64,000 bases of DNA from an uncultured Ignavibacteria bacterium (GTDB taxonomy: Bacteria; Zixibacteria; MSB-5A5; CAIYYT01). Numbering within the stretch: position 1 is the first letter of the stretch; each line of letters starts with the position of its first letter. The stretch lies in NCBI GenBank assembly GCA_964617645.1, contig CAZTYE010000013.1, positions 3,956 to 67,955 of the forward strand, given 5' to 3'. Positions 6,743 through 52,250 of the stretch are shown piece after piece. Made by a program: the position numbers and the translations under genes. The notes beneath the pieces are model-generated. The model searched no databases. It saw nothing but the letters and a program-made list of their open reading frames with translations, and was not told the DNA's origin.

Positions 6743-6748
6743 TCGCCA

Positions 6749-18185: not shown

Positions 18186-18210
18186 TCGGTTAGCCCGGCG
18201 CAACGCAAGC

Positions 18211-30319: not shown

Positions 30320-31228
30320 TTGCCGATGACGAATACTCGACGAGAATTGTTCAAATGGGCAGCCGTCGGCGCGGTAACCGCTGTTGCCGGGCGAGCCGAG
30401 GCCAAGGAAGAGGAATTCCCTCTCGATTGCGCGCAAACGTACGGCGTACTGGTTGATACGGTCGTCTGTATCGGCTGTCGCAAGTGCGAGTGGGCGTGCA
30501 ACAACGAGCACAAACTCTCGAATACCGATCTCAAGACATTTGAAGATCGCACGGTTTTCCGAAAGCATCGCCGGCCGACGGACCAGTCGTATACGGTGGT
30601 CAATGAGTTCCGCAATCCGGCCACTCAAAAGCCGTACACGATGAAGGTCCAGTGCATGCACTGCAACCACCCGGCCTGCGTGTCCGCCTGTATCGTCGGC
30701 GCCTTGACCAAGAGCAATTCCGGCTCGGTGGATTATGATGCCTGGAAATGTATCGGCTGCCGGTATTGCATGGTAGCCTGCCCGTTTCAAGTGCCGGCAT
30801 ACGAGTACAGCGAGGCATTCAAGCCGCGGGTGATGAAATGCACCTTCTGCGCCCACCGCTTGGCCGAAGGCAAAAAGCCGGCGTGTGTGGGCATCTGCCC
30901 CAATGAGGCGTTGACGTTCGGGACCCGGCAGGAATTAATCGAAATCGCCAAAGAGCGGATCAAGATCAAGCCGGATGTTTACTATGACCATGTCTACGGC
31001 GAAACGGAGGTCGGCGGCACCAGCTGGATGTACCTGGCGCCGGTCGAGTTCAAGCACACCGAGCTGCCGACTTTGGGCGAGAAGCCGATTCCCAAGCTAA
31101 CCGAGACGATTCAACACGGCATATTCAAGTCGTTCGTTCCGCCGCTGGCACTTTACGGCTTATTGGGGCTGGTCATGTACTCGCTGCGCGAGAAGGATGA
31201 GAAGGAGTCGCACAATGAGCACGCATGA
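30320..31228 (+). CDS. Tat-exported 4Fe-4S dicluster protein (HybA/HmcB-like)
   Basis: Twin-arginine TRRELFK; Cys clusters CIGCRKCEWAC, CMHCNHPACVSAC, CIGCRYCMVACP and KCTFC...PACVGICP; EVGGTSWMYL; C-terminal TM anchor. Confidence 0.9.
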   Translation: MPMTNTRRELFKWAAVGAVTAVAGRAEAKEEEFPLDCAQTYGVLVDTVVCIGCRKCEWACNNEHKLSNTDLKTFEDRTVFRKHRRPTDQSYTVVNEFRNPATQKPYTMKVQCMHCNHPACVSACIVGALTKSNSGSVDYDAWKCIGCRYCMVACPFQVPAYEYSEAFKPRVMKCTFCAHRLAEGKKPACVGICPNEALTFGTRQELIEIAKERIKIKPDVYYDHVYGETEVGGTSWMYLAPVEFKHTELPTLGEKPIPKLTETIQHGIFKSFVPPLALYGLLGLVMYSLREKDEKESHNEHA

Positions 31229-32468
31229 AATTCCGGCCCCGATTCAGCGCGTTCCGTTTTTCACCAAGGGCACGATTATCCTCTCGATCTTGGCCGGACT
31301 CGGGATTTCCGCCTACATCTATAGATTGCTGTTCGGACTGGAAGCCGCGACCAACCTCGACGATCAATTCCCGTGGGGCATCTGGATTGCGATTGATGTC
31401 GCTTCGGGTGTGGCGCTGGCGGCCGGCGGATTTACCAGCGCGGCACTCGCCGACATTTTTCACAAAGACAAATACCACGTGATCACGCGGCCGGCGCTTT
31501 TGACGGCGATGCTGGGATACACGTTTGTCGTGATCGGCCTGCTTGCGGATCTGGGACGCTATTATAATGTGTGGCACCCGATGCTTCCGAGCATGTGGCA
31601 AGGCAATTCGGTGCTGTTCGAAGTCGGCATGTGCGTGATGGTTTATCTGACCGTGCTGTATGTCGAGTTCCTGCCGATCGTGGCGGAGCGATTTATCGGT
31701 CGTGTCAAACTCCCCGGAATATTGCGCGTTTTCAATAGTCTGGTCGACGGCTGGCTGCGAGTCTGCAAGCAGTTCCTCGGGCGATTCCTGTCGCTGTTCA
31801 TCATTGCCGGTGTGGTGCTCTCGTGTTTGCATCAGTCGTCGCTGGGAACGTTGATGGTGATCGCGCCGACAAAAATGCATCCCCTCTGGTGGTCGCCGAT
31901 CTCACCGCTGATGTTCCTGTTGTCGGCGATTGCCGTCGGTTTTCCGATGGTGATTTTTGAATCACTGGTGGCGTCGCGCTCGTTCAAACTCAAGCCGGAG
32001 ATTCCGGTGCTTTCGTCGATCGCGGCCTACACGCCGATTCTTCTGGGGGTCTACCTCGCCGTGAAGATAGGCGATTTGACGATGCGCGATGCGTGGCCGT
32101 TCCTGTTCGAGGGTTCGCTGCAGTCGTTCATGTTCATGATCGAAATCGGCCTGGGCGTGATCGCGCCGCTGTTGATGCTCGCCAATCGCAAGCTGCGACA
32201 AACGGCGAAGGGGCTGTTCATCTCGGCGTCGCTGGTGATCTTTGGCGTGCTGCTCAATCGCATCAATGTCTTTCTTGTCGCCTACGAACCGCTGTATCCG
32301 CAAACGACATACTTCCCTTCGGTGTTCGAGATCATGGTGACGGTCGGACTGGTCTGCGCATTGGTGCTGGTGTATCGGTTCCTGGTGCTCCATTTCCCGG
32401 TGATTGCGCAACCGGCTCATGAAGTGAAGGCCGACAATCCGTCGCCGGCAATCGTAAAGACGGCTTAG
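31215..32468 (+). CDS. NrfD/PsrC-family membrane subunit (HybB/HmcC-like)
   Basis: TNLDDQFPWGIWIAIDV..GVALAAGGF, DLGRYYN.WHP, SVLFEV..C and LHQSSLG; about 10 TM segments. Confidence 0.9.
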   Translation: MSTHEIPAPIQRVPFFTKGTIILSILAGLGISAYIYRLLFGLEAATNLDDQFPWGIWIAIDVASGVALAAGGFTSAALADIFHKDKYHVITRPALLTAMLGYTFVVIGLLADLGRYYNVWHPMLPSMWQGNSVLFEVGMCVMVYLTVLYVEFLPIVAERFIGRVKLPGILRVFNSLVDGWLRVCKQFLGRFLSLFIIAGVVLSCLHQSSLGTLMVIAPTKMHPLWWSPISPLMFLLSAIAVGFPMVIFESLVASRSFKLKPEIPVLSSIAAYTPILLGVYLAVKIGDLTMRDAWPFLFEGSLQSFMFMIEIGLGVIAPLLMLANRKLRQTAKGLFISASLVIFGVLLNRINVFLVAYEPLYPQTTYFPSVFEIMVTVGLVCALVLVYRFLVLHFPVIAQPAHEVKADNPSPAIVKTA

Positions 32469-32483
32469 GTGGAGGTGGATGAA

Positions 32484-33602
32484 GTGAAGAAATATACATC
32501 GATTGCATTCAATGTCCTCGTAGCGTTGTTGCTCAGCGGATCGATATTCGCGCAGAGTAAGCCGAAGGCGGTCAATTGCAGCGAGTGCCATACGTGCCCG
32601 TCCCCGACAGTGGCGAACCCGTGTTTGAAAGCTTGTCCACGAGCGCAGGCGGTTCACCAAGCAACCAAGCACGAAGTCGCCGATGCGCCGGACTCGATGC
32701 TGCTCGGCGACATCGCGGATTTGTATCAACCGGTGCATTTCAATCACAAGCTGCATGCGTCGATGGCGCAAATGGGCGGTGACTGCGCGACGTGCCATCA
32801 CTTCAGCCCACCGGGAAGAATCCCGCCCTGCAAGGAGTGCCATAGCCCGTCCGGTGAATCGAGCGATCTGCGCAAGCCGAACCTCAAAGGCGCCTATCAC
32901 CGCCAGTGCCTGGCCTGTCACCGCGAATGGAGCCATGAAACGCAGTGCGTGCTTTGTCATATTCCTTCGGAAGGCGGCGCGATTGCGCAGTCGGCCAAGG
33001 ATCCGACGGATATCATCGGCACACCGCACCCGAAAATCGTCGCGCCGGATAAGCGGCTGTACACGACGCCGTACAAGCCGGGACCGATGGTGACTTTTTA
33101 TCATGAAGAACACATTCAGCTTTTCAATCTGCGCTGCGTCGATTGTCACAAGCAGGAGAACTGCGGCTCGTGTCATGACATGAAGCGCGAAGTGAAAATC
33201 GCCAAGACGCAGGAAGAAGTGCACGCGATCTGCAACGATTGCCACAACAAGGACGCCTGCGCCAAGTGCCACGACACCAAGGAACGTTCGGCGTTTTCGC
33301 ATGCCGACACCGGTTGGCCGCTCAGTCGTTTCCATCAGAAGCTTGAGTGCCGCGCGTGTCATCCGACGGGCAAGAAGATTGCGCGCTTGAACAATAACTG
33401 CTCCGGTTGTCACGGCGGTTGGAACCAGGCGAATTTCAAGCATGCAATTGTCGGTTTGCAGCTTGACGAAGTGCATATCGAGCTGGAGTGCAGCGACTGT
33501 CACGAAAACAAGAATTTCGCGGCGACGCCGAAGTGCGACGGTTGTCATGATGACGGCCGCACGCACAAGGATGCGCCGCCGGGCGAATTGATCCGCAAGT
33601 AG
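32484..33602 (+). CDS. Multiheme cytochrome c, cytochrome c3-like, 13 CxxCH
   Basis: Signal peptide; 13 CxxCH counted; c3-type V.F.H..H and AYHRQCLACH; GGAGG RBS before GTG at 32484. Confidence 0.9.
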   Translation: MKKYTSIAFNVLVALLLSGSIFAQSKPKAVNCSECHTCPSPTVANPCLKACPRAQAVHQATKHEVADAPDSMLLGDIADLYQPVHFNHKLHASMAQMGGDCATCHHFSPPGRIPPCKECHSPSGESSDLRKPNLKGAYHRQCLACHREWSHETQCVLCHIPSEGGAIAQSAKDPTDIIGTPHPKIVAPDKRLYTTPYKPGPMVTFYHEEHIQLFNLRCVDCHKQENCGSCHDMKREVKIAKTQEEVHAICNDCHNKDACAKCHDTKERSAFSHADTGWPLSRFHQKLECRACHPTGKKIARLNNNCSGCHGGWNQANFKHAIVGLQLDEVHIELECSDCHENKNFAATPKCDGCHDDGRTHKDAPPGELIRK

Positions 33603-33666: not shown

Positions 33667-33777
33667 GTAAACCAAAATCGGCAGGGGGAAGTGATTCACA
33701 CGATTTTTCGAAATAGCGATTGACAAATCGACGATAGTGACGTCATATTGTTAAGGTCAATCTTGGAGAGGAAAACT

Positions 33778-36015: not shown

Positions 36016-36026
36016 GGGAGGTCACT

Positions 36027-37906: not shown

Positions 37907-38746
37907 GTGATTACACGCATCAAAATCGGGTTGTTGACGCTGCTGGCGGGAATCGCGTTTTACTACTTTGGTCGGGGCTTGCCGGATGGGAGGGCGGATT
38001 TCGAGAAGGGGCATCCGCATGAAGAGGTCAATTGCGAGTTGTGCCACAAGTTCGACGGCAACATGCGCGGCTTTGGCGTGAGCGTGGCGCGCAACGCGAT
38101 GTGCCTGACTTGTCACACGACGGCCAAGCTTCATGATGTCAAACTGCGTTCGTTCCACGCGGCGACGACACCCAATTGCAACGAGTGCCACAGTTTTCAC
38201 GCGCCGAGCCGGGTGATTGCCAACGGCGACACGACGACGATGGCGATCGTGGCTGGCCTCGACGAGATTTGCGCGGACTGTCACAACAATCCGGGTCGGC
38301 CGGTGGTGTCGGTCGGTCATGAGGCGGCGGCGCGATTAATTCACGGATCGCTCGATCCGGCCTGGGTGGCGCAGCCGTCGCAATACTGTATGGCGTGTCA
38401 CGACGCGGACGCCGCACCGCGTGGTGATGCCAATACCGGGCAGGTGACGCCGAGGATCCACACGGTCGGCGGCCACGCGATTGGAATTCCATTGATTCCC
38501 GGCTTTCAGCGGGCGGGTGCGGACAATAAGATCCGCGATCAGATACCCGAGTTCGTCCGTACGATCAACGGAAATATCGAGTGCCTGACCTGCCATTCAC
38601 TGAGTTCGGGCAGCGCGTTCCTGCTGGTGACCGGGCACCAGAACGACTTGTGTAACGGCTGCCACAATGTCGATCCGAACATTCCAGAAACAAGGCCACC
38701 GGTCTTCACTCAGCGTTCAGCGAACGGCGACCGGGTGCGTCCGTAA
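37907..38746 (+). CDS. Multiheme cytochrome c, 7 CxxCH, N-terminal membrane anchor or signal
   Basis: CELCH, CLTCH, CNECH, CADCH, CMACH, CLTCH, CNGCH; the last pair has the doubled-CXXCH pattern. Confidence 0.85.
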   Translation: MITRIKIGLLTLLAGIAFYYFGRGLPDGRADFEKGHPHEEVNCELCHKFDGNMRGFGVSVARNAMCLTCHTTAKLHDVKLRSFHAATTPNCNECHSFHAPSRVIANGDTTTMAIVAGLDEICADCHNNPGRPVVSVGHEAAARLIHGSLDPAWVAQPSQYCMACHDADAAPRGDANTGQVTPRIHTVGGHAIGIPLIPGFQRAGADNKIRDQIPEFVRTINGNIECLTCHSLSSGSAFLLVTGHQNDLCNGCHNVDPNIPETRPPVFTQRSANGDRVRP

Positions 38747-39509: not shown

Positions 39510-42500
39510 GTGCGACACGGACGATGCTTTGGGATCATTGCACACATCATTTTGGGGGTCGGCGCTTTTCTGGCATTTTCATCGTCCGCTCAGGCGGTCA
39601 AGACTTGCTACGATTGCCACCAGAATCTTAAAGCGGCCTTCGAAGCAAAAAAGGTCGTTCACAAGCCGGTAAAGGACAACGACTGCGAGTCGTGTCACAA
39701 ACGTCATGGGTTCGCCAATACTCTAATTCTCGTCGACAATAGTTCGGAACTGTGTTTCACATGCCATGCGGACTTGAAAGAGAAATTCGCGGTTGGGACG
39801 AAGCACGCGCCGATGGAAGTCGGCAAATGCTGGGATTGCCACGAACCGCACGCCGCCGACAAGAAGGGGCTGCTTCGCAATTACGAAGGCGTGATCGACG
39901 ATCCCGGCTCCTGCCTGGCGTGCCACGGCAAGGAACTGGAATCGGCGCTTGACGGAACAGTTCCCCATCCGCCGTTTACGAAACTGGATTGCGCGGCCTG
40001 TCATGATCCACATAACAGCGAGCACGCGGGATTGCTCAAGAAGGACGTCAGTGCGCTTTGCGCCGATTGCCACGATCCGAAGGACAAGAAGACGCTGGCG
40101 GCACATGAAGGCAAAGCGATCGCCGGCTTGGAGTGCGCCGAATGTCACAGCGGCCATTCGACGAACAGCGCGGGGCTGATGTCAGGAAATTCGCATGCGC
40201 CTTTTTCCGAAGGACAATGCGATGTTTGTCATGCGCCGGTGACCGATCCGGCGGCGATTCAGTTCACCGATGGCAAGAAACCGGGAGAACTTTGCGGCGA
40301 ATGCCACAGCGAACAGGTCGACGCAACGGCGTTGGCGATTCCGCATGCCGCGGTGGAGAAGGTCAACTGCGATGCCTGCCACCAGCCGCATTCATCGCGG
40401 CACGGCAAGCTACTGAAGGAAAATCAGGCCAACTTGTGCGGCGAATGCCATGACGATCTTCTGACCGGCGACAAGATGGTTGCGCACGCGCCGGCGATTC
40501 TCGGAGACTGCTCCGGCTGTCATGAAGTTCACGGCTCGAATAAGGAGCATCTGCTCGCCGCAACGGATTCGAGTCTTTGCCTGGGATGCCATGGCGAATT
40601 CGCAGTAAAGCGGGATTCCGCCGAAGTCGTGCATCCCGCGATCGCCGACTGCAATGGTTGTCACGCTCCGCACGAGGGCCACACACAGGCGATCTTGCGC
40701 ACTTCACCGGAAGACGCCTGCCGCAAATGCCATGAACCGTCGGGCGCGGATCGCGCGGCAGAGTCGGTCCACCCGCCGTATCTCAGATCGGATTGCAGCG
40801 CTTGTCATAATTCCCACTTCGGCGACGAGGCGCATCTCGTTAAGGCCGGTGGGAACAAACTTTGCGTCAATTGCCATCCGGAAATCGGGAATCGAACAAC
40901 ATTGGCGGTTCAGCACGCGCCGGCGCAGGAAGATTGCCAAACCTGCCACAGGCCCCACACCGCCGGAAGTGATTTTCTCTTGGCAGCGCCCGAGGGTGAG
41001 TTGTGCGGCCAGTGCCACGACCGGGCCGATTTTAATGGCAACAAGACTTTCGTGCATACGCCGGTACTGAAGGGCGATTGCAGCGGTTGCCACAATCCGC
41101 ACGGCTCGATGAAGGAACATCTGGTCGCCGGTCGTGCGGTGCGGATGTATGTCAACGGGATTCCGATCAGTAAAACACCGGCCCTGGGTGACAAGATCGC
41201 CGACCTTTGCTTCACCTGCCACGATGACCTGAAAGAGAAATTCCGCCAAGGCGTACCGCATACGCCGGTCGAAAGCGGCGATTGCCAGGTATGCCATGAT
41301 CCGCACGGCGGCGATGTCTACGGCATGCTAAAGGACGAGCCGGCCAAGGTTTGCGGGACATGCCATACGATCGACGCGGATTTGGCGACGAAACATGAAA
41401 ACTACGATCTGACGGCCGCGAACTGCCTTGATTGTCACAATCCGCACACGGCTCCGGAAAAGGGACTGATGCGGGCGAACTTGCATCCGCCGTTCGCCGA
41501 AAAGTCTTGTGACGGCTGCCATGAGCGCGGTGCGGACGGCAAGGTTGTCATGGCGGGACCGGAAGCCGAGGTTTGCGGCACTTGTCACGAGGATTTGCTG
41601 GGCCTCGCGAGCAAGAAGTCGCAGCATGGGCCGTTTGCCGCCGGCGAATGCACGGCCTGCCATAGTCCTCATGCGGGCGACGACAAGAAGTTTCTGCTTC
41701 GCGCCGGTAATGATCTGTGCACTAACTGCCACTCCGACATTCATGAACTGGTGAATCAGCCGGTGCAGCACCGCCCGTTTGCGGATGGCGCCTGCGTTGA
41801 CTGCCACGGACCGCATGCGACGGACAATCCGGTATTGACGGTCAAGGCGAAGGAAGGATTCTGCACGAGTTGTCACGAAGACATCAAGAAGGAGCTGGCT
41901 TCCGGCGAAGTCCACGCGCCGACAAAGACCGGCGATTGCACCCAATGCCATCTGCCCCACGCCGGCGCCGCACCAATGCTTCTGGCGAAAGACAAACAAG
42001 CACTCTGCTCGGGATGTCATGATTACACTTCGGTGGCCGTGAAAACAGCGCATGGCGGGTTCGACATTTCCGGCGCCGACTGCCAGAATTGCCATGTCGC
42101 GCACGCCACGAAGCGCGGTGTCAAGGGGCTGCTGCTGCCGAACGCGCACGAGCCGTTCCGCAGCGGCACGTGCGACCAGTGCCACGCCGGGCAAGCGCCT
42201 CTACCGCTGGTTGCCGAGACCAAGGAGTTGTGTCTGACCTGCCACGACGACTTTGCAAAGCAACTTGCGCAGGCCGTGGTGCATGCGCCGATCCTGAGCG
42301 GTGATTGCACCGGTTGTCACGGCCCGCACGTCGGCTTCGGTAAGTCACTTCAGGTTCGCGAAGGATTCAAGGCCTGTGTCACCTGTCACGACTCGCGTGA
42401 GTTTTCCGGCAGCGTCAAACATCCGGTGGCGTTCGAAGATTGCGGCAACTGTCATGATCCGCATGCGGCGCCGAATAAGGGACTTCTAAATACGACGGAT

Positions 42501-42704
42501 ATACAAGGCTTGTGTCTCGGCTGTCATGAAGACGCCAAGAAGTCGCATTTTCATCCGATGGGCGATAGTGTCATTGATCCGCGCACCAAGACGCCGGTGA
42601 ACTGCGTCAGTTGCCACTCGGCACACTCATCCGACTGGCCATCGATGCTGGTTGCCGATAAAAACCGCAAGTTGTGTGTACTGTGCCACGACGTCAGCCA
42701 CTAA
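39510..42704 (+). CDS. Very large periplasmic multiheme cytochrome c, 42 CxxCH
   Basis: Sec signal ending AQA; 42 CxxCH counted, mostly as H.P...CxxCH.PH....LL......CxxCH paired repeats. Confidence 0.93.
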   Translation: MRHGRCFGIIAHIILGVGAFLAFSSSAQAVKTCYDCHQNLKAAFEAKKVVHKPVKDNDCESCHKRHGFANTLILVDNSSELCFTCHADLKEKFAVGTKHAPMEVGKCWDCHEPHAADKKGLLRNYEGVIDDPGSCLACHGKELESALDGTVPHPPFTKLDCAACHDPHNSEHAGLLKKDVSALCADCHDPKDKKTLAAHEGKAIAGLECAECHSGHSTNSAGLMSGNSHAPFSEGQCDVCHAPVTDPAAIQFTDGKKPGELCGECHSEQVDATALAIPHAAVEKVNCDACHQPHSSRHGKLLKENQANLCGECHDDLLTGDKMVAHAPAILGDCSGCHEVHGSNKEHLLAATDSSLCLGCHGEFAVKRDSAEVVHPAIADCNGCHAPHEGHTQAILRTSPEDACRKCHEPSGADRAAESVHPPYLRSDCSACHNSHFGDEAHLVKAGGNKLCVNCHPEIGNRTTLAVQHAPAQEDCQTCHRPHTAGSDFLLAAPEGELCGQCHDRADFNGNKTFVHTPVLKGDCSGCHNPHGSMKEHLVAGRAVRMYVNGIPISKTPALGDKIADLCFTCHDDLKEKFRQGVPHTPVESGDCQVCHDPHGGDVYGMLKDEPAKVCGTCHTIDADLATKHENYDLTAANCLDCHNPHTAPEKGLMRANLHPPFAEKSCDGCHERGADGKVVMAGPEAEVCGTCHEDLLGLASKKSQHGPFAAGECTACHSPHAGDDKKFLLRAGNDLCTNCHSDIHELVNQPVQHRPFADGACVDCHGPHATDNPVLTVKAKEGFCTSCHEDIKKELASGEVHAPTKTGDCTQCHLPHAGAAPMLLAKDKQALCSGCHDYTSVAVKTAHGGFDISGADCQNCHVAHATKRGVKGLLLPNAHEPFRSGTCDQCHAGQAPLPLVAETKELCLTCHDDFAKQLAQAVVHAPILSGDCTGCHGPHVGFGKSLQVREGFKACVTCHDSREFSGSVKHPVAFEDCGNCHDPHAAPNKGLLNTTDIQGLCLGCHEDAKKSHFHPMGDSVIDPRTKTPVNCVSCHSAHSSDWPSMLVADKNRKLCVLCHDVSH

Positions 42705-42723
42705 ATGGACTGAGGGAACTCTG

Positions 42724-43611
42724 ATGATCAGGCACCGACTCTATGCTCCGATTCTTGCCGCGACGATCTTGTTCACTGCCGCATATGCGACGGCGTTGCA
42801 GCTCTACAAGAGCATCAAAGTACTCGACGGTGAGCGGCAATTGGTCAAGCCGACGCAGGTGGTTACGTCGCCCTCCGGCGCCCGCTATGCGGTTGTCGAC
42901 CAGTTTGCCAACCGAATTTATGTCTTCGACATTCCCGATCAACTGGTCTGGGAAGTCGGCACGCTGACGCCGCTGGTGCTGCCGACGTCGGCGTGTTTTG
43001 ACGGCGAAGACGCATTATTGTTCGCGGTGCAAAATCGCAATCAGGTTTATCGAACCCGCAGCGACGAACCGGACAAGTACGACAGCGTAACGACAATCAA
43101 GGACGGCGGAATCCGCAATATCGACGCCATCCGCCGGACGCCGGAGAACCAATATATCGTGCTTGATCGCAAGAATGGACGAGTCGCGCAATTCGATCAC
43201 AAGTGGCGATTCGTGCGCGTAGTCGCCGATCAGGGCCAGGGTCGAGGCAAGCTGTGGGCGCCGGTTGAAGTGGCGGTTTTGCTCGGCGGTGGTTTGGCAA
43301 TTTCGGATGCCGCGAATATGCCGCTGCAGATATTCTCCAGCCAGGGGAAATTCCTCAACTCTGCCGGCTGGAATAATCCGACGCAAGACCGTCAATGGAA
43401 GGGCGGCGCTGTCACGGTGGGATTGGACGAAACGATTTGGGTTGCCGATATGAGTGCGCGCCGGTGGCGGCGTTTCGACCGCGCCGGAGTGGAAGTCAGC
43501 AGTGAGAGCTTCACCCTGCCGCCGATGCATCCGCTGAGCGCGGCATTCACCGCCGATGGCCGGTTAATCGTGGTGGATGAGTTAGGGTCGCTGCACATCT
43601 TCGAACCATAA
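42724..43611 (+). CDS. NHL-repeat beta-propeller protein
   Basis: Signal peptide; repeats PTQVVTSPSG..YAVVD, GKLWAPVEVAV..GG.L.ISD, VTVGLDETIWVAD. Confidence 0.75.
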   Translation: MIRHRLYAPILAATILFTAAYATALQLYKSIKVLDGERQLVKPTQVVTSPSGARYAVVDQFANRIYVFDIPDQLVWEVGTLTPLVLPTSACFDGEDALLFAVQNRNQVYRTRSDEPDKYDSVTTIKDGGIRNIDAIRRTPENQYIVLDRKNGRVAQFDHKWRFVRVVADQGQGRGKLWAPVEVAVLLGGGLAISDAANMPLQIFSSQGKFLNSAGWNNPTQDRQWKGGAVTVGLDETIWVADMSARRWRRFDRAGVEVSSESFTLPPMHPLSAAFTADGRLIVVDELGSLHIFEP

Positions 43612-43625
43612 TTACTGAGGATCTT

Positions 43626-44579
43626 GTGAAACGCATCGCGTCGTTGCTGATCGGAATCACTCTCTGGCCGCTCGTTAACGTGGTCGCGGGCGAATGGCAC
43701 ACCGAGGGCAACCTGCGCTGCGCGGATTGCCATCTATCGCATGCTTCGGGCGAAGAGATCGGCGCCTATGAGGGGCCCTACCTGATCCTGCTCAAGAAAG
43801 ACTCGATCAACGAATTGTGCCTGTCTTGCCACGACGGCAGCGATCTGGCCGCGCCAGATGTGCTGACGCCGGTTGAGATGTACGCCGCGACGAGCGCCGG
43901 CGAGAGCACTGCGGGGCATCTGCAACTTCCCAGCTATGATCACGCTGGCGGGCACAATCTGGGTCTGATCGCGCCGACGCCGCTGCAGTCCGCCGGCAGC
44001 GCCATAGAACTCAGTTGCATCAGTTGTCACGCGGCGCACGGCAATGCCAATTACCGCAATCTGTCGGAAGATCCGGCACGCATCGGCAGCAATCTTTCCG
44101 TTGTTGACGGCATTCAAGTGTTCACCGATCAGAAGCCGTCGCGGCCGCCAAATTCGGTGTCAACGATTGCGGCTTATCAGCGCGACAATGTCGGTTACGT
44201 TTCCGGCCTCGACGAGTGGTGCACATCCTGTCACAATCAGTTGGAGAATAACGCACCGGCTTCAAGTCCTGCGCATTTTGCGGGTCACCCGTCCGGCGTG
44301 GCGCTCAATCAGTTTGTCAGCGAGTATCATGCGGATCCGCAACATTGGATCGGCGGAAGTGGCGAGGGATTTACGCTCGATGGGATTAGCCGGTTGCCGA
44401 TCCTGTCGCCGAGCGCGACGAGTTTCATCGCCGCCCGCACGCCGCAGACATCCGATCGCGTGAGTTGTATCAGTTGCCACCGCGGACACGGCGGCGATCG
44501 GCGAAAGAATCTCCGGTGGCCGGCGGTTGAAGGCGGCGCCACCGCGATGGCCGGATGCCAACAGTGCCATAACAAGTAG
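43626..44579 (+). CDS. OmcS-like hexaheme cytochrome c (paralog 1)
   Basis: 6 CxxCH; mature WHTEGNLRCADCHLSH; GGHNL, YRNL, GLDEWCTSCH and VSCISCHRGH in OmcS order. Confidence 0.75.
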   Translation: MKRIASLLIGITLWPLVNVVAGEWHTEGNLRCADCHLSHASGEEIGAYEGPYLILLKKDSINELCLSCHDGSDLAAPDVLTPVEMYAATSAGESTAGHLQLPSYDHAGGHNLGLIAPTPLQSAGSAIELSCISCHAAHGNANYRNLSEDPARIGSNLSVVDGIQVFTDQKPSRPPNSVSTIAAYQRDNVGYVSGLDEWCTSCHNQLENNAPASSPAHFAGHPSGVALNQFVSEYHADPQHWIGGSGEGFTLDGISRLPILSPSATSFIAARTPQTSDRVSCISCHRGHGGDRRKNLRWPAVEGGATAMAGCQQCHNK

Positions 44580-44586
44580 TGAGCAG

Positions 44587-45681
44587 ATGATGAGTCAGCG
44601 CACAACAGGTGTGAGTTTAGGAGTAGCGTCGCTGTTAATCGCGGGGGCAGCGTTGCTGCTCGCCGATGGCGGCCGGTTCCGCAATTCACCACACGGCTCT
44701 GCCGAAAGCGGCGTGTGGCGAACCGGAGATTATCCTCGCGGAAGCTGCCTGCAATGTCATGGCGCGCACCAAGGAGGCACGCCGGAACCGTTCGGACTAT
44801 TCCAGCCCAATAGCAATGAACTCTGCCTCGGCGCCTCGATGGGCGGCTGCCATGCCGATCAACCGAGCGGTGCGACGGCGGGCTATCCGGCGCAAGAGAC
44901 GGACCGGATGCCGATCGGATCGAGCGACGCCGGTTATTTCGAGTTCAATTCCGGCGGCACACGGATTCCCGGAGTCAGTAATCATGTCCGCTGGCCGGGT
45001 CGTCAGGTTTGGAAGGATCTCGCGTATTCACCGCATAATACCGACCCCGATATGCCGCTTAAGGATTTCTTCGGCGACGGCGACTGCGGAAATTGCCACA
45101 ACATACACGGTGGCGCGGGATCGCACGATTTACTTGATACGACCTACAGCAGCATCGTAGGTTCGCAATTCGGCGCGTGGCCGGACAACTACGAATTGTG
45201 TTTCTCCTGCCACTCGCAATTCGGCCCGGTCGGGATGAACGAAAGCGGCAAACGCATTCGCGACTACTACGACCGCTCGATTAATCCGAGCAACCGCGCG
45301 GGCCATGGTATCGGCGACGGCGGCGGATACGTGCCGTCCGGCGCGCGGCTGTCGTGCTCGGATTGCCACAATCCGCATGGATCGCGTGGGAGTCAAGCAG
45401 GGGGTCCGAACGCGTTCTTGCTCAGCGATCAGCGCCCGGGCTGGCACGGACTCACCGATATTCGCAACGACAACGCTCAGGTTCGCCGATTTTGCTTCGG
45501 TTGCCATGTATCCTCCGATAACCAAGCGGGGGGAACTATCCATGGACTCAATCTGGAGCGGCTTCCCGACGAAGTCGCGGCGCATGAATTCATGGGCACG
45601 ACACATTGCTACGACTGTCACGGACGCGACTATTCGACGTCGAACGGCTTCAATGTTCATAACCCAGCGGAGGGTGAATAA
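44587..45681 (+). CDS. Multiheme cytochrome c, 6 CxxCH plus one CX7CH
   Basis: CLQCH, CLGASMGGCH, CGNCH, CFSCH, CSDCH, CFGCH, CYDCH; hydrophobic N-terminus. Confidence 0.85.
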   Translation: MMSQRTTGVSLGVASLLIAGAALLLADGGRFRNSPHGSAESGVWRTGDYPRGSCLQCHGAHQGGTPEPFGLFQPNSNELCLGASMGGCHADQPSGATAGYPAQETDRMPIGSSDAGYFEFNSGGTRIPGVSNHVRWPGRQVWKDLAYSPHNTDPDMPLKDFFGDGDCGNCHNIHGGAGSHDLLDTTYSSIVGSQFGAWPDNYELCFSCHSQFGPVGMNESGKRIRDYYDRSINPSNRAGHGIGDGGGYVPSGARLSCSDCHNPHGSRGSQAGGPNAFLLSDQRPGWHGLTDIRNDNAQVRRFCFGCHVSSDNQAGGTIHGLNLERLPDEVAAHEFMGTTHCYDCHGRDYSTSNGFNVHNPAEGE

Positions 45682-47381
45682 TGTTGCGGGTCGTATTGGT
45701 GCCGGCGCTTCTGACCATTCTGGCCTGCGACGTTGACGCCGATCGGCTGTACGGGAATCTCAATTTGCTGGGAGAGCACTCGCGACAAGCCGGGGCCGTT
45801 GCTTTCAGCGACAACTCCTCGCAGGCAACGCTCACGCTTAACTACGAAGACGCTCTTTTCGTAAAAAACCGAATGCGGCTCGGACTTCAGGTTTCGCGAC
45901 GCGACTATCCGAATTCGCCGCAGCGGGACCTGAGGCCGATTTTTACGCTCGACCTCAAGAGCTACGGTTATGCACTGAATCTGAGCTACTCCCCGTACCG
46001 GCGGCTGACGACAGACGCGATCGGCGCGAGCACGTACTATTTGTATTCGCGTGATTGGCGCTCCAACCTGGCCCTCAACTACGATCGCTACCCGCCCGTG
46101 AACATCACCTACAACCGGACGCGAAAATTCGACCGCCAGACCCAGCGCCGCTTCGATAGCTCCGGCGAGACGTTTTTGATCGACACCCGCCACGCGGTCG
46201 GTGGCGTTGCGGTGCGCGGGTCTTATGGCCGGGTAACGAGCGAGAATTTTCTGATCGGCGGCTCGAATTCGGTTTCGGAAAACGTCGCGGCGGCAGCGAC
46301 TCTAACCAAGAATTACGACGGCATCGGCTACCTGAACGCGCTCTATTCGTACTATGCCTCGGAGATCGACCGCCGGTCGTTGGCGGTGCGCAATCGCACG
46401 GAGTTTTCGGCGCACACGATCAACGCCCTGTTGTCTTCCGACCGGTTTTATGGACTGACCGCGACGACTACCTATTCCGGGCGCTGGGCGGAGTCACAAA
46501 CGAGCACAATTCGCGCCCAAAACGACAATCACAACGCTACGGCGCAGTTGTCGTTCCTGCCCCTATCGTATTTATCGTTCGATGTCGCGAAATCGTACCA
46601 AACCACCGAAGAAGGCGGCCCGCGGCAAACGGTAGAATTCGTCAGCATCTCCGGCTCCGCATCGCGTTATCTGCGGCAAGGCGTCGACACGCGGTTGGGC
46701 GCCACCCGGACGTTTTTCCAGAAATCAAACAAGTCGCTGGAGAGCGGCGAGGGCGGTTCGGGAGCTTATAATTACGACAACATCTATGCTTCAGTCGGAC
46801 TGACGCCGCTGAATTATGTCCGTACCTATTTCGACGTCTCGGTAGCGCACGATTCAAAGCCGATCTTGAAAACCCAGCGGTATCAGGTCTTTCGTTCTTT
46901 GAATGCGCAGCTTCAACTCAGCCGCCGCATCGAGAGCCGCATCGGCTTTACCGCGGTTTATCAGGGCGCGAACTTGAATTTTGACCAGAGTATCTCGCGA
47001 AACTACAACCTCGGGCTGACGTGGATTCCAACCGGCAATCTTAGCCTGAACGCAAACTACATTCGGACGGAAAGCGCGACCGACATCGCGCTGAGCACCG
47101 ATTCGTGGAACGGCTACGCGTCGTACTCATTCCGGCGCGCTTTCACGCTATTCGTCAACGGCGTTTGGCAGGAACAAAAGACGTCGGCGATATCGCCGGC
47201 GCTGCTACCGTCGGAAGTCAATCGCACTTCGCGGCCGCGGTCGATCAATAGCCAGATTCTGATTTACCTGACGCCGTCAATTACACTCACCGGCGGATAC
47301 TTGTACTCCCTGGTTGAAGTGCTGGGCGGATCGTACACCTTGATCGAGTCCTATCAGTTATCCTTGAATTTTCGGATTTAG
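45681..47381 (+). CDS. Outer-membrane beta-barrel protein (porin of a porin-cytochrome or secretion system)
   Basis: Signal-like N-terminus; alternating amphipathic strands rich in Y/S/T/N; terminal strand SYQLSLNFRI; TAATG coupling to the upstream cytochrome. Confidence 0.7.
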   Translation: MLRVVLVPALLTILACDVDADRLYGNLNLLGEHSRQAGAVAFSDNSSQATLTLNYEDALFVKNRMRLGLQVSRRDYPNSPQRDLRPIFTLDLKSYGYALNLSYSPYRRLTTDAIGASTYYLYSRDWRSNLALNYDRYPPVNITYNRTRKFDRQTQRRFDSSGETFLIDTRHAVGGVAVRGSYGRVTSENFLIGGSNSVSENVAAAATLTKNYDGIGYLNALYSYYASEIDRRSLAVRNRTEFSAHTINALLSSDRFYGLTATTTYSGRWAESQTSTIRAQNDNHNATAQLSFLPLSYLSFDVAKSYQTTEEGGPRQTVEFVSISGSASRYLRQGVDTRLGATRTFFQKSNKSLESGEGGSGAYNYDNIYASVGLTPLNYVRTYFDVSVAHDSKPILKTQRYQVFRSLNAQLQLSRRIESRIGFTAVYQGANLNFDQSISRNYNLGLTWIPTGNLSLNANYIRTESATDIALSTDSWNGYASYSFRRAFTLFVNGVWQEQKTSAISPALLPSEVNRTSRPRSINSQILIYLTPSITLTGGYLYSLVEVLGGSYTLIESYQLSLNFRI

Positions 47382-47396
47382 CAACGGATAAGAGTT

Positions 47397-47981
47397 ATGA
47401 AATCACTGACCCGAATCACACTGCTTTTGACTTTGCTGCCGCTGCTGTCTTGCGGCAGTTATCGGGCGTACACCAATCCCGAAGCCGACTTTGGGTTCTA
47501 CGAGCGCGTCGGTGTCATCCCCTTCGCCAATCTTACCAACGACCGCAATGCGTCGGAGAAGGTGACTTCGGCGTTCGTGATCGAGCTCCTCATCGGGGAC
47601 GCGCTGGAAGTGGCGCCGATGGGCGACGTCTACAAGGCGGCGCGCGCGGTACTTAAAGACGAAAAGACGAATCTGCCCGATCAGTTGACGGGCGAGGAAG
47701 CGCGCGCCCTCGGCGAAGCGGCGCAAGTCCAGGCGCTCTTTGTCGGCGCGGTCCGCGATTACGGCATGGTGCGCTCGGGACAAGAGGAGTTTCCGCTGGT
47801 GTCGGTCAGCGTGCGCTTGATCGACTGCGGCACCGGCAAGGTGGTTTGGACGCACGAAGTGACGCGCAAGGGTGGGCCGAAATTCCCGATCTTCTCGTTC
47901 GGCGAGACGCATACGCTCGGTGACATGACCGCCAAGGTTTGCCGCGAGGTGGCACGAGATTTCCTCGGTAAGGTGCGATAG
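47397..47981 (+). CDS. Lipoprotein, DUF799/GNA1162 (CsgG/PelC/TolB_N-like fold)
   Basis: Lipobox LLS-C; RVGVIPFANLT...ALGEAAQVQALFVGAVRDYG...VSVSVRLID..TGKVVW. Confidence 0.7.
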   Translation: MKSLTRITLLLTLLPLLSCGSYRAYTNPEADFGFYERVGVIPFANLTNDRNASEKVTSAFVIELLIGDALEVAPMGDVYKAARAVLKDEKTNLPDQLTGEEARALGEAAQVQALFVGAVRDYGMVRSGQEEFPLVSVSVRLIDCGTGKVVWTHEVTRKGGPKFPIFSFGETHTLGDMTAKVCREVARDFLGKVR

Positions 47982-47983
47982 CC

Positions 47984-48568
47984 ATGCGTTCGGCGGCGAT
48001 TTTTGTTGTGGTAGCGGTTGTGGCGCTCGCGATGTTGGCCTGCAGCCCGGGAATGGTCAGCAAGCGCTCGGCACGAATCGAGCTGCCGCAGAAGCCCCGC
48101 GTGGCGGTGCTTCCCTTCGAGAATTATTCCGGTGAGGAAGGCGCCGCGACGCGCATTACGGATTACTTCGTTACGCTGATGACGGCCAGCCCGGACTTTG
48201 AACTGATCGAATTCGGCAGTTCATACGAGGCGATGCGCCGACTGCGGATCCGCTCATCGAATTCGATGTCGAGCGAGCAAATCGACAGCCTGGCGGCGAT
48301 TCTGGGCGCCGACGTGCTGTTTTCAGGCACGGTGGTAGAATACAATACTGTCGACAACTCGTATCTCGGCAAAGTCCCGCGCGTGGCGTTCAACGCACGT
48401 GCCCTGGCGACGCGCGAACGGCGCACAGTTTGGTCGGCGGCGGTTAGCGGCCGCGGCGACAAAGGCGAGTTTCTTTTCGGAATTGGCGTAATTCGATCCG
48501 CGGAGAAGCTGTCGGAAAAGCTGGTTGAAGCGGCGGTAAGAGAGTTCGCGGATGAAATTCGCAATTGA
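47984..48568 (+). CDS. Lipoprotein, second DUF799/CsgG/PelC-like paralog
   Basis: Lipobox MLA-C; RVAVLPFENYS...LGADVLFSGTVVEY...VAFNARAL....RTVWSA. Confidence 0.7.
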   Translation: MRSAAIFVVVAVVALAMLACSPGMVSKRSARIELPQKPRVAVLPFENYSGEEGAATRITDYFVTLMTASPDFELIEFGSSYEAMRRLRIRSSNSMSSEQIDSLAAILGADVLFSGTVVEYNTVDNSYLGKVPRVAFNARALATRERRTVWSAAVSGRGDKGEFLFGIGVIRSAEKLSEKLVEAAVREFADEIRN

Positions 48569-49532
48569 TCGCCGGCTGCTACTGCTCGCTATTCTGGTGG
48601 GAGTTACTCTCAGCAGTGTCGCGGTCCTTGCCGAACACCCGGCGCAGCGGATTTCGATAGCCGCGATCGGCGATCAAGACGCCACCGGCAAACAATTGCG
48701 CTCGCCGGTGTCGATTCACTTTGATCGCTACGGCAACGAGGTGTTTGTCGTCGACCCGGGCGGAAAAAAGGTGGTGATCTTCGACCCCGACCTCAACCCC
48801 CGCTTCGAGTTCCAGCATCGGGTGCCGTCGCTTCAGGGCGGACAACTCGAGCCGGGAGAACCCAAGCGTCTCGTGACCAATCGGCACGGCGAGATTCTCC
48901 TGATCGATAATGTCGCGGATTTCATCGACATCCTTGACTTCCGCGGCAGACCCGTTGATCGCATTTATCCCAATCGGCTCCTGGGCGACACGACGCTCAA
49001 AATTCGGGCAGACCTGATCGCTACGGATGAACGGGACAATGTTTATGTATCGATCGACGGAGACCTTCAGGCGGTGCTGGTGCTTGACGGCAATTTGCGG
49101 CTCAAGCGCCGCTTCGGGCAGAAAGGCGACCGGCCGGAAGACTTCAATACAGTAGTTGGGCTTTACGCCAGCGAGGGCAAAATCTACATCGCCGATGTAT
49201 ATGGCGAACCGGCAATTAAGGTCTACGACACCCTCGGTACTTACCTGTTTGGGTTTGCCCGCCATGAGATCGACCCCGGTGATCTTTCGATGGCGCAAGG
49301 CATTGCGGTGCACCGCGACACAGCCGGAATCCAGACGATTTGGGTCACCGATGCTCTGCGGCAAGTCATAAAAGTCTACTCAGACAGTGGAGTTTACATC
49401 GCGACCGTCGGTGGCTTTGGCGAAAAGCCAGGAGAGTTTATGTATCCTTCCGGAATCGCGGTGTCGGAGACCGGCTCGTTCTATATTGTGGAGCGTGGAT
49501 CGGCCCGAATTCAGCGTTTCGACTACCGCTAA
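48552..49532 (+). CDS. NHL-repeat beta-propeller protein
   Basis: LRSPVSIHFD..GNEVFVVD; FGQKGDRPEDF; GGFGEKPGEFMYPSGIAVSETGSFYIVERGSARIQRF. Confidence 0.85.
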   Translation: MKFAIDRRLLLLAILVGVTLSSVAVLAEHPAQRISIAAIGDQDATGKQLRSPVSIHFDRYGNEVFVVDPGGKKVVIFDPDLNPRFEFQHRVPSLQGGQLEPGEPKRLVTNRHGEILLIDNVADFIDILDFRGRPVDRIYPNRLLGDTTLKIRADLIATDERDNVYVSIDGDLQAVLVLDGNLRLKRRFGQKGDRPEDFNTVVGLYASEGKIYIADVYGEPAIKVYDTLGTYLFGFARHEIDPGDLSMAQGIAVHRDTAGIQTIWVTDALRQVIKVYSDSGVYIATVGGFGEKPGEFMYPSGIAVSETGSFYIVERGSARIQRFDYR

Positions 49533-49604
49533 GTTAATGCCACTAACTTACTAAGCATTGCACGAAAATTGACCGCGAAAATCGATTTGGTACGAAGAAT
49601 TTCC

Positions 49605-49640
49605 TTGACAAACAATACGAGATTGCTATCTTTTTCACAA
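49605..49640 (+). promoter_or_regulatory. Sigma70 promoter with extended -10 overlapped by a Rex-type operator
   Basis: TTGACA (49605-49610), 16-nt spacer with TG, TATCTT; operator TTGCTATCTTTTTCACAA at 49623-49640; aligns without gaps to 38891-38930. Confidence 0.7.
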
Positions 49641-49717
49641 ACTTTTGAAGCGCTGAAAGCCTTCATATAAGGAACGAGCCGAATGCACCTGCGAAGAGCC
49701 AAATCGACAAACAGGAT

Positions 49718-49735
49718 TTGTGAAGTTTTTCACAA
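49718..49735. promoter_or_regulatory. Perfect Rex-type operator
   Basis: TTGTGAA-GTTT-TTCACAA. Confidence 0.8.
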
Positions 49736-49952
49736 TCACGACAGTCTTTGGGGACAATCGGCCGAGTTAAAGATCGCCAGAACTCAGCCTCTATTTACAT
49801 CTGATCAAAGTCAAATTAGCTCGAATGAACAATTGATGAAAGGAGTGATGCCAGATCACCGACGCGGATCGCGAGAATCTGCGATCACAAAAGACGGGCT
49901 GAACGTTCACAAGTACTTTCACCTTAATTCAACCACTAAGGTAGGTTCTACA

Positions 49953-51032
49953 ATGAAGAAGCTCACCTTGCTTGCTTTTGCCATGGTGTTCGCGCTTGTT
50001 GTCGCGGCGATGGCGGGCGACTATCATTCCGGCGCGAATCTGAATTGCGCGGAATGTCATGTGATGCACTATAGCCAGACCCATGGCTACAACAGCAATG
50101 GCGGCGGGATCACCGTCGACCTGGGCAACGCAGGCCCGTATCATTACTTGCTGCGCAACGAAATCAACGATCTCTGCCTGACTTGCCACGATGGCCAAAC
50201 ATTCGCGCCGGACGTTTTTGAAGTCGGTACTGGCGCTCCGGCAAACGGCCGTCTCGCCGGCGCTCTGAATCGTGATAACGTTTCGCCGTACTTTGATGCT
50301 ACCGGCCACACCCTCGGCTCGACCGACGATGCCCCGGGTGGCACTTGGGACAATCCGGACGGCCTTAACTGCACGAACTGCCACACCCAGCACGGCCGCG
50401 GCGGCTCGTGGGGTGGCGTGTCGTACAGCCTTTATCGCAATGCGAACATCTTCATCAACGGCACCCCGACAACCCCGCTGATGACCTATGCCATCGGGAC
50501 CAATGATCTCACTCGCGACATCTTTGAGCGTTCGGCGACTTACGGCGGCACGCACTATGACTTGCTGAACGTCGACTACAATGAGCCGGATCCGACGCAG
50601 TCTGGATACGGTCGTTTCTGCGGCCAGTGCCACACCAATTTCCATGGAACCGTTGGTTCCGCGGAGATCGGCGGCACGGGTACGCCGGCCAGCGAATTCC
50701 TGCGTCACCCCACCGCCGGCGCCAATATTGGAGCGCTTGGTGGCGGGCACTCAAGCCTGACCCGCAAGTATGACGACATGCTCTATCGTCTCAAGGTCAT
50801 GAGCCCGACCGGTAACTGGGGAACGTGGGGCGTTGCGTTCGGCGGAACCTCGACGGTCTCCAATGCTCCGACCGATCATACACCGTCTTGCATGACCTGC
50901 CACAAGGCGCACGGCACGACCCGCGCCTTTGGTCTGATCTGGGCCACGGGCACGACTCCGTACGGTGAAAACGGCGACGGCACCCGCTACGATCAGCAGT
51001 GCGGCCAGTGTCACGCGCAGGTCGCCTTCTAA
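49953..51032 (+). CDS. OmcS-like hexaheme cytochrome c, likely the major subunit (paralog 2)
   Basis: ATG at 49953 after AAGGTAGGT; signal peptide; YHSGANLNCAECHVMH; 6 CxxCH; APGG...LNCTNCH..HG, FCGQCHTNFH, RHP and SCMTCHKAHG; own promoter and terminator. Confidence 0.8.
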   Translation: MKKLTLLAFAMVFALVVAAMAGDYHSGANLNCAECHVMHYSQTHGYNSNGGGITVDLGNAGPYHYLLRNEINDLCLTCHDGQTFAPDVFEVGTGAPANGRLAGALNRDNVSPYFDATGHTLGSTDDAPGGTWDNPDGLNCTNCHTQHGRGGSWGGVSYSLYRNANIFINGTPTTPLMTYAIGTNDLTRDIFERSATYGGTHYDLLNVDYNEPDPTQSGYGRFCGQCHTNFHGTVGSAEIGGTGTPASEFLRHPTAGANIGALGGGHSSLTRKYDDMLYRLKVMSPTGNWGTWGVAFGGTSTVSNAPTDHTPSCMTCHKAHGTTRAFGLIWATGTTPYGENGDGTRYDQQCGQCHAQVAF

Positions 51033-51067
51033 TTCAGAAGTCACGCCTGTTCATAGTCTGCAATTGA

Positions 51068-51091
51068 GAAGAGGAGCTTCGGCTCCTCTTC
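51068..51091 (+). terminator. Strong hairpin (terminator or RNA stabiliser) after the major OmcS-like gene
   Basis: GAAGAGGAGC-TTCG-GCTCCTCTTC, 10-bp stem with UUCG loop; the U-tract is weak. Confidence 0.7.
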
Positions 51092-51122
51092 CGTTCTTGC
51101 TAATGCTAATCGGGAGCATTCA

Positions 51123-52250
51123 ATGAAGCCGAATTCTTCAATTACTACTTTCCTCATGTTATTTGCTCTTACCTGCTGCTCAAGCTCATTCGCCTTCGAT
51201 CCCAATGATGCGGCGGCAAACCTTCAGTACATTCATCCCGGAGCGACGATCAAGACGCCCGCGGCGGCATTCAAAGCCACCGGTCAAATGGACGTTCCGA
51301 CATTTCATAGCGGTACGACTCTGTATTGCTCGCAGTGCCATGTCATGCACGCCAGTCAACAACATGCGCATGAAGGCGTGGGCGCAATCGATCCCTTCGG
51401 CCCCTACCCACGCACGTTCGACCCATCGCCGAAGCTGCTCAAAGCTCCGGATCCTGTTGCGCTCTGTTTGACCTGCCATGACAATGTGCCCGGCGTCCCG
51501 GATGTCGTCGGAGCAGACGTCAACGGCCTCGTTGAGCGTTCAGCGGGCTTGTTCGAGCTACCCGGCGAGCCAAACCCCAGAGGACACAAGCTCGACTACG
51601 GTCTTGATACGGATCCGGGGTTTGGTCTTTGCATGAGATGCCATTTTGGAGGAACGTTTGAGGATGCGGCAGTCTCCTGTATCGACTGTCACAATCCACA
51701 CGGAAACGGTCGAGCGAGAAACCTTCAATGGGCGTCATACCCCGGCGGCGAGCCGCAGTTTGGATTGTACAACTCCGTCAATAGCGGTTTGGCCAAGTAC
51801 GAACGCGGCAACGTGGCGTATGGTACAGACAACTCAGATTTGGCACGCGAAGTCACGAACATGTGCAATGACTGCCACCATGTGTTCACCGGTCAGTATT
51901 ACAACGACCCGGACGCGGATGGTATTCACAACCTGCACCCGAGTTACGACTCGGAACGGTCAAATCCGAATAATATAGCGCAGGGCAACTCGGAAGGCAC
52001 GACCAGCAGCCAGCATTGGATCGACGGCACGGGAACCGGCTATCAGGCTACGCCGCGGGTCAACTTCGTCAACTACCCGGCTACCGACTTCGCATCGGCG
52101 TCGACCGTGAATGCCGGCAGCAACGGAGTATTCTGCCTATCGTGTCACAAGGCTCACGGCGGGACAAGCTCGTTTGCTTTGCTATGGGATCCTGTTGGCA
52201 GTTTTAATGGAGAAGGATGCGATCAGTGCCATCTCAAGATGGGCGAATGA
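51123..52250 (+). CDS. OmcS-like cytochrome c with N-terminal extension and a seventh CxxCH (paralog 3)
   Basis: Signal peptide, ~35-aa extension, then FHSGTTLYCSQCHVMH; CSQCH, CLTCH, CMRCH, CIDCH, CNDCH, CLSCH, CDQCH. Confidence 0.75.
   Translation: MKPNSSITTFLMLFALTCCSSSFAFDPNDAAANLQYIHPGATIKTPAAAFKATGQMDVPTFHSGTTLYCSQCHVMHASQQHAHEGVGAIDPFGPYPRTFDPSPKLLKAPDPVALCLTCHDNVPGVPDVVGADVNGLVERSAGLFELPGEPNPRGHKLDYGLDTDPGFGLCMRCHFGGTFEDAAVSCIDCHNPHGNGRARNLQWASYPGGEPQFGLYNSVNSGLAKYERGNVAYGTDNSDLAREVTNMCNDCHHVFTGQYYNDPDADGIHNLHPSYDSERSNPNNIAQGNSEGTTSSQHWIDGTGTGYQATPRVNFVNYPATDFASASTVNAGSNGVFCLSCHKAHGGTSSFALLWDPVGSFNGEGCDQCHLKMGE

Follow-up and report, generated by a model that had tools for sequence, protein, structure and literature searches.

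The 64,000-nt stretch of contig CAZTYE010000013.1 analysed here (the window), which comes from an uncultured bacterium of the Zixibacteria lineage, encodes three multihaem cytochromes that resemble OmcS, the nanowire cytochrome of Geobacter sulfurreducens. We named them A, B and C. As judged from family profiles, they are genuine but distant members of the OmcS superfamily, anciently diverged paralogues whose three families branch deeply and lie apart from the clade formed by close OmcS homologues. Head-to-tail polymerisation, which a sequence-only reading of the window had proposed for all three proteins, is plausible for B and is unproven for A, B and C. The three genes and their N-terminal motifs are as follows.

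43626..44579, + strand: paralogue A, 317 aa, hexahaem, OmcS-like, with a signal peptide
43695..43742, + strand: A motif WHTEGNLRCADCHLSH, residues 24-39; His16 counterpart H39, codon 43740-43742
49953..51032, + strand: paralogue B, 359 aa, hexahaem, OmcS-like
50022..50069, + strand: B motif YHSGANLNCAECHVMH, residues 24-39 counted from the ATG at 49953; His16 counterpart H39, codon 50067-50069
51123..52250, + strand: paralogue C, 375 aa, heptahaem, OmcS-like
51303..51350, + strand: C motif FHSGTTLYCSQCHVMH, residues 61-76; His16 counterpart H76, codon 51348-51350

Homology of A, B and C to OmcS

A hidden Markov model (HMM) of the OmcS family was built from 125 OmcS homologues, and family profiles were built from 119 A relatives, 72 B relatives and 113 C relatives. 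Reference genomes were scanned with a query that we take to be the OmcS sequence, which the PDB alignments confirm for residues 1-57 and 125-405. The scan returned 78 loci from many phyla with homologues 50-67% identical to the query. The best match was 67% identical, and G. sulfurreducens itself was not among the 78 loci, so the Geomonas locus L023 was used as the canonical reference.

The OmcS-family HMM matched A, C and B collinearly with scores of 50-65 bits. When each family profile was aligned with the OmcS family by hhalign, the probability was 99.8% for A (E 1.3e-27), 99.5% for B (E 2.7e-23) and 99.3% for C (E 9.7e-21). The top alignments were full-length, and in them 12/12 haem cysteines and 12/12 axial histidines of OmcS fell on Cys or His in A, B and C, which bears out the earlier claim that the later motifs of the three proteins follow the OmcS order. 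Exactly 12 histidines are conserved in 126 OmcS-family sequences (2, 13, 16, 51, 110, 144, 147, 243, 257, 332, 335 and 404), matching the twelve axial ligands reported for the OmcS structure (PMC6584659). Their counterparts are invariant or nearly so within each of the A, B and C families. In A they are H25, H36, H39, H69, H110, H135, H138, H203, H221, H285, H288 and H315, and H39, the counterpart of His16, is kept in 100% of the 119 family members. Other window cytochromes, aligned with the OmcS profile as negative controls, gave 10-34 aligned columns (E 6e-6 to 3e-3).

OmcS was the top PDB match of A by phmmer (6ef8, E 8e-6) and of the B and C profiles, while single-sequence phmmer searches of the PDB with B and C did not retrieve OmcS. 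Pfam and NCBIfam have no OmcS-specific model and yielded only generic multihaem families. The three proteins are 26-30% identical to one another and about 22-27% identical to OmcS, and their pairwise alignments with OmcS all begin at OmcS residue 1. Secondary hhalign alignments among A, B, C and the OmcS family were offset by two haems, with H16, H147 and H335 equivalent. This offset indicates that OmcS-like proteins are built of three tandem dihaem modules, each of the form (His)...CxxCHxxH...CxxCH.

Each of the three paralogues carries the motif H-x6-CxxCH-xx-H near its N-terminus. The peptides quoted in the sequence-only reading were all found exactly in the translated window; the positions given with them (43626, 49953 and 51123) are gene starts and not those of the motifs. 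The spacing of His2, Cys9, Cys12, His13 and His16 equals that of residues 1-16 of the OmcS chain 6ef8_A. The exact OmcS register that had been claimed therefore holds for the internal spacing, but the distance to the mature N-terminus differs: going by the putative signal-peptidase sites, VVA↓GE and AMA↓GD, the first His would be residue 4 of mature A and mature B, and an extension of ~37 residues precedes the motif in C. Signal peptides are visible in all three sequences, and in A and B the motif comes directly after the signal peptide, as it does in OmcS. The motif was invariant in 109/119 A relatives, 118/120 B relatives and 114/114 C relatives. The signal above chance lies in the full-length collinearity rather than in this 16-residue pattern.

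A and B have six CxxCH motifs each and C has seven, a number shared by all 114 C relatives. The additional haem of C (CMRCH, C170-H174) is placed between haems 2 and 3 of the OmcS order, and the N-terminal extension of C carries an invariant His38. The haem-5 motif of B, C313xxC316H317, is encoded by nt 50889-50903 (C313-H317). B also has an invariant His44 (window 50082-50084) five residues after H39; His81 of C likewise stands five residues past the His16 counterpart, a trait common to B and C.

Companion genes and distribution of the cluster

Ten co-directional genes at 39510-52250, including those of A, B and C, form a rearranged cluster similar to the omcS-companion (osc) cluster. In the canonical order, as found in Geomonas L023, an NHL propeller is followed by OmcS, a second OmcS-like protein, a YNCE propeller, a ~750-aa protein, a 194-aa GNA1162/LpoB-like lipoprotein, a 373-aa protein, a prolyl isomerase and a multihaem cytochrome. 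Osc letters were assigned by gene order and by the GSU numbers given in PMC13194489 and PMC12977616, so that the fourth to ninth items of L023 are OscD to OscI. These two sources report roles of OscD in wire morphology, of OscE, OscF and OscG in secretion and of OscH in folding (PMC13194489, PMC12977616). The remaining genes of the cluster and two candidate regulatory elements are listed here.

39510..42704, + strand: 42-haem cytochrome, 1064 aa, 42 CxxCH, paired-CXXCH repeats; it also heads the cluster in L079, L081 and L082
42652..43611, + strand: NHL-repeat beta-propeller 1, directly upstream of A; start probably the ATG near 42724
44527..45681, + strand: cytochrome D, six CxxCH, 384 aa; start probably near 44587
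45681..47381, + strand: 566-aa protein without a Pfam family; counterpart by position of OscE, the ~750-aa gene of canonical clusters
47397..47981, + strand: lipoprotein, OscF-position homologue, 194 aa, lipobox LLS↓C, weak LpoB/GNA1162/CsgG-like match
47984..48568, + strand: lipoprotein, OscG-position homologue, 194 aa, lipobox MLA↓C; paralogue of the preceding lipoprotein
48552..49532, + strand: NHL-repeat beta-propeller 2, directly upstream of B; counterpart of the propeller before omcS
49605..49632, + strand: promoter-like site, TTGACA-16-TATCTT, 10/12, the best sigma-70-like match of the region
51068..51091, + strand: terminator- or attenuator-like hairpin, 10-bp, GC-rich, just past the stop codon of B

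The 42-haem cytochrome is a probable OscI-like electron feeder spanning the periplasm. The family of the 566-aa protein was aligned with that of the ~750-aa protein by hhalign at 97.8% (E 1.2e-12, 536 columns), and the 566-aa protein is probably an outer-membrane channel, presumably of barrel topology. Both lipoproteins match the two genes that follow the ~750-aa gene in 56-57 of the 78 OmcS loci, the OscF-position protein at E 1e-18 to 1e-28 (57/78 loci) and the OscG-position protein at E about 1e-20 to 1e-28, and the order of these three genes is the same in the window and in L023. NHL propeller 2 matches, in 49 of these loci, the gene that directly precedes omcS.

The promoter-like site lies within a 420-nt gap upstream of B. 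A strong GC-rich hairpin comparable to the one behind B, in many cases with a T-rich run after it, was found directly after the B homologue in 5/5 other loci (L079 and L081-L084), and the B-family genes examined come from at least three phyla. Riboswitches have been reported for exoelectrogenesis genes in Geobacter; an Rfam scan of the whole window, aimed at a riboswitch upstream of B, returned nothing.

Cytochrome D was considered as a fourth OmcS paralogue and rejected, since its similarity was local, limited to a single dihaem module and not collinear. Its homologues in L081 (3585-5720) and L082 (3519-5684) have 711-721 aa and 12 CxxCH motifs, and the proteins in the window, L079 and L084 are of half that length with 6 CxxCH. 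The doubled length indicates duplication or fusion of a module.

The ten-gene order recurs in the Zixibacteria assembly L082 and in L081, and the pairing of an NHL gene with A is also found in these two loci. Reduced versions of the cluster occur in Eisenbacteria and Acidobacteriota; L079 and L084 retain the NHL-B pair, the giant cytochrome and the genes of the channel and the lipoproteins. The organism of L079, whose assemblies reach about 100x coverage in several ENA runs, may be obtainable. A prolyl isomerase and a YNCE propeller, both of which the canonical L023 also has, adjoin the B homologue in L083, an Acidobacteriota locus. The B homologue is preceded by an NHL gene in L079 and L081-L084. 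After clustering at 90%, relatives numbered at least 942 for B, at least 444 for C and at least 290 for A. They belong to Zixibacteria, Eisenbacteria, Acidobacteriota, Armatimonadota, Planctomycetota and others, and almost all are unannotated ('hypothetical' or 'cytochrome c3 family'). The closest relatives are from Zixibacteria, with 60-67% identity.

Several other genes of the window were recorded. An LVIVD-repeat protein is encoded at 33748-36015 (+), and its weak match to a C-terminal sorting domain of type IX secretion was just below the cutoff (26.4 vs 27 bits); this would fit a host of the FCB group, most likely Zixibacteria. A subtilase is seemingly split in the overlapping open reading frames (ORFs) 35907-37115 and 37112-37696 (+), which cover positions 4-151 and 174-288 of the Peptidase_S8 profile; this could reflect a frameshift, a pseudogene or a sequencing error. 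A 1177-aa protein and an adjoining PAAR-motif protein are encoded at 54003-57536 (-) and 57548-58660 (-). The 1177-aa protein has a weak, below-cutoff OmpA-like match and a HEIGH zinc-protease-like motif, and together they may act as effectors of type VI secretion. The stretch 1283-9073 (+) has a bacterial alpha-2-macroglobulin of 1819 aa and then a PBP1C-type transglycosylase/transpeptidase; at 18154-19734 (+) stands a TLC-type ATP/ADP transporter-like protein with a HEAT-repeat protein after it.

The candidate filament subunit and alternative explanations

The explanation that we favour, and hold to be probable, is that A, B and C are OmcS-like paralogues within an osc-like cluster, that B is the main polymerising subunit and that the resulting wire is exported. 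B is the best candidate for a filament subunit. Its family is the largest of the three, an NHL gene always precedes B, and of the paralogues only B occurs in all the cluster versions that were examined. In the B family no other stretch of 26 residues is as conserved as the N-terminal arm, residues 21-46 (0.82 vs 0.64), in which 17/26 positions are at least 90% conserved; the haem-5 region belongs to the stretches that rank next. Together with the promoter-like site and the hairpin, this conservation is, as indirect evidence, what would be expected of a structural subunit made in abundance. The residue that bridges OmcS subunits is said to have been identified by Wang et al. in 2019 as His16, whose counterpart in B is H39 within this arm. 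Haem 5 of OmcS receives one axial His from the neighbouring subunit (PMC6584659, PMC9473688). A group of genes upstream of the cluster bears on how electrons might reach such a wire.

30320..33602, + strand: 4Fe-4S protein, NrfD-type membrane protein and 13-haem cytochrome, upstream of the cluster

We infer the following electron route, together with the extracellular location of its final part, the ligation between subunits and the choice of B as the polymerising paralogue. Electrons would exit the quinone pool through the FeS/NrfD/multihaem module at 30320-33602, which is probably a quinol-oxidising entry module and, from its proximity, presumably linked to the cluster; with the upstream LVIVD-repeat protein that may be sorted by type IX secretion, this module points to a pathway from quinol to the cell surface. 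Three multihaem cytochromes, namely D, the 42-haem protein and that of the 37907 ORF, would carry the electrons across the periplasm to an extracellular OmcS-like polymer. Export of the polymer would depend on the OscE-like channel and the two OscF/G-like lipoproteins, with the NHL propellers assisting. Each B subunit would hold six bis-His haems in a chain, arranged as three dihaem modules. The haem-5 site (C313xxC316H317) would be without a sixth ligand of its own, and the N-terminal arm of the next subunit would supply it through His39 or possibly through the invariant His44. Haem 1 would stack on haem 6' of the adjacent subunit and so give a continuous chain of dihaem modules. A and C would be accessory OmcS-like proteins, possibly a base, an adaptor, a tip or alternative wires.

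Several observations weigh against this explanation. Window cytochromes unlike OmcS also carry the 16-residue pattern: ORF 37907-38746, with seven haems, has one copy and the 42-haem protein has two. Because of this recurrence the pattern alone is weak evidence. The N-terminal motif was present in every OmcS paralogue of the 78 canonical loci and is thus a family-wide trait. Conserved histidines beyond the twelve occur in B (H44 and H231), in A (H217, H235 and H240) and in C (H38, H81, H253, H269 and H298), and such spare residues might conceivably act as the sixth ligand of haem 5, closing it within one chain, or take over the bridging role of the His16 counterpart. H44 of B, H38 and H81 of C and the three of A are invariant. 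The AlphaFold2 model of B (predicted local distance difference test score, pLDDT, 77) had 6ef8_A as its sole Foldseek match in the PDB (E 8.4e-6, prob 1.0), but with template-modelling (TM) scores of 0.43/0.39 (TMq 0.43) and a root-mean-square deviation of 10.5 Å. The corresponding model of C (pLDDT 72, below 50 in the N-terminal third) retrieved neither OmcS nor any other meaningful structural match. A Pfam scan of the window ORFs turned up neither an OscH-like prolyl isomerase nor an OscD-like YNCE propeller. The promoter and terminator calls are consensus matches only, and the sigma-70 consensus may not be that of the host. Wire formation is known for OmcS alone among the paralogues, no function is known for OmcT, OmcJ or GSU2501, and the companion block may have been used for secretion prior to the emergence of nanowires (PMC12977616).

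Among the alternatives, the one that survives best, which we regard as doubtful, is that A, B and C share the OmcS fold and do not polymerise. They would then be monomeric or small-oligomer carriers in the periplasm or on the outer surface, as parts of a conduit of the porin-cytochrome type formed with the 566-aa protein and the 42-haem cytochrome, and the N-terminal His would ligate intramolecularly or heterotypically. The known wire-forming ability of OmcS alone among its paralogues, the presence of the motif in all of them, the spare conserved histidines of A, B and C and a secretion system possibly older than nanowires all speak for such proteins, as does the pattern CxxCHxxH, which is generic to paired-CXXCH cytochromes and occurs 19 times in the 42-haem protein. 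On the other hand, all 12 ligand positions of OmcS are kept, including the subunit-bridging pair, and the arm of B is conserved beyond the needs of haem binding as the most conserved part of the protein. B also resembles an abundantly made structural gene with a promoter-like site of its own and a conserved hairpin, and its companion genes are those tied to the secretion of OmcS wires.

Two further arrangements assign all three paralogues to one structure. In the first, which we consider unlikely, the wire would be pilus-like with minor subunits: B would form the bulk, A a base or adaptor and C a tip, branch or inter-wire junction, with the His-to-haem-5 contact as a shared 'plug and socket'. 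A sits with its own NHL partner, propeller 1, near the channel gene. In the second, which seems quite improbable to us, a single heteromeric wire would be joined by His-to-haem-5 contacts between paralogues, for example with A as a channel-proximal base, B as the bulk and C as a tip, junction or branch. A, B and C all keep both halves of the putative interface, the arm His and the haem-5 motif; they are repeatedly found on shared contigs, with the order NHL-A ... NHL-B-C kept in Zixibacteria, and C always has an extra haem and a His-bearing N-terminal extension. The heteromeric wire is opposed by the occurrence of B without A in L079 and without A and C in L083 and L084, from which it follows that B can do its work, whatever that is, in their absence, and by the arms of A and C, which are not especially conserved. 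That chance or the composition of haem-binding motifs produced the resemblance to OmcS is scarcely credible: the 16-residue pattern recurs in unrelated window cytochromes and single-sequence phmmer of B and C misses OmcS, but the full-length collinear profiles (E 1e-20 to 1e-27, against 10-34 columns in the controls) refute it, OmcS is the sole structural match of the B model, and the companion genes are homologous to those of omcS clusters.

To our knowledge, cytochrome nanowires have been structurally demonstrated for only a handful of proteins. If B polymerises as in the explanation that we favour, OmcS-type wires and their export machinery would reach well past the lineages with close OmcS homologues and would extend into abundant uncultured phyla of sediment and subsurface. 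Such phyla have already been implicated in iron cycling (PMC8478452). Comparison of lineages at roughly 20% identity would then reveal the residues essential for the inter-subunit bond and for haem packing, and the heptahaem C paralogue provides a natural variant of the haem chain. If A, B and C do not polymerise, the 'His16' arm would be insufficient to predict wire formation. A large unannotated clade in uncultured phyla in any case becomes a testable nanowire candidate. Were the wire with minor subunits to exist, the C-type heptahaem proteins would be a new class of nanowire component and the C profile would be the first link between OmcS and OmcE at the sequence level.

Comparison with known systems

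OmcS of G. sulfurreducens (GSU2504; PDB 6EF8/6NEF) is like A and B in its six collinear CxxCH motifs, in the positions of the 12 axial histidines and in an N-terminal arm of the form aromatic-H-S/T-G...CxxCHxxH directly after the signal peptide. The organisation in three dihaem modules and the NHL propeller gene upstream are further common features, and an OmcS-like fold is tentatively predicted for B. A, B and C differ from OmcS in being 50-90 residues shorter, in their low identity to it (~22-27%) and in their extra conserved histidines, and C also differs in its seventh haem and N-terminal extension.

The Geobacter paralogues OmcT (GSU2503), GSU2501/OscC and OmcJ (GSU0701) provide a parallel, as several OmcS-like hexahaem genes are clustered with a secretion block there and the N-terminal motif is common to all. 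These paralogues score >200 bits to OmcS by phmmer and are much closer to it than A, B and C, each of which is further from OmcS than from the other two.

The osc cluster of G. sulfurreducens, GSU2505-GSU2493, was described by Shen et al. 2025, as cited in PMC13194489 and PMC12977616. It has in common with the window cluster an NHL propeller, OmcS-like genes, an OscE-position protein of ~570-750 aa followed by two GNA1162/LpoB-like proteins, and a very large multihaem cytochrome. The order in the window is rearranged, however: it begins with the large cytochrome and ends with B and C, and there are two NHL propellers. The OscG-like protein of the window has half the canonical length, and the OscD-type YNCE propeller and OscH-type prolyl isomerase are not among the window ORFs in the Pfam scan.

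The tetrahaem nanowire cytochrome OmcE (PDB 7TFS) shares with OmcS the ligation of haem by a His of another subunit and the same haem packing (PMC9473688). It differs in having four haems and a different overall fold, and it lacks a His seven positions ahead of its first CxxCH. The C-family profile weakly matched the N-terminal dihaem module of OmcE (7tfs_A, E 1.4e-4), with C 50-158 aligned against OmcE 31-146, only ~110 residues. A match of the same profile to 9yuq_N, a 'putative multiheme cytochrome c', was weaker than that to 7tfs_A. The C-family profile may thus be a link, at the level of sequence, between the OmcS and OmcE wire families.

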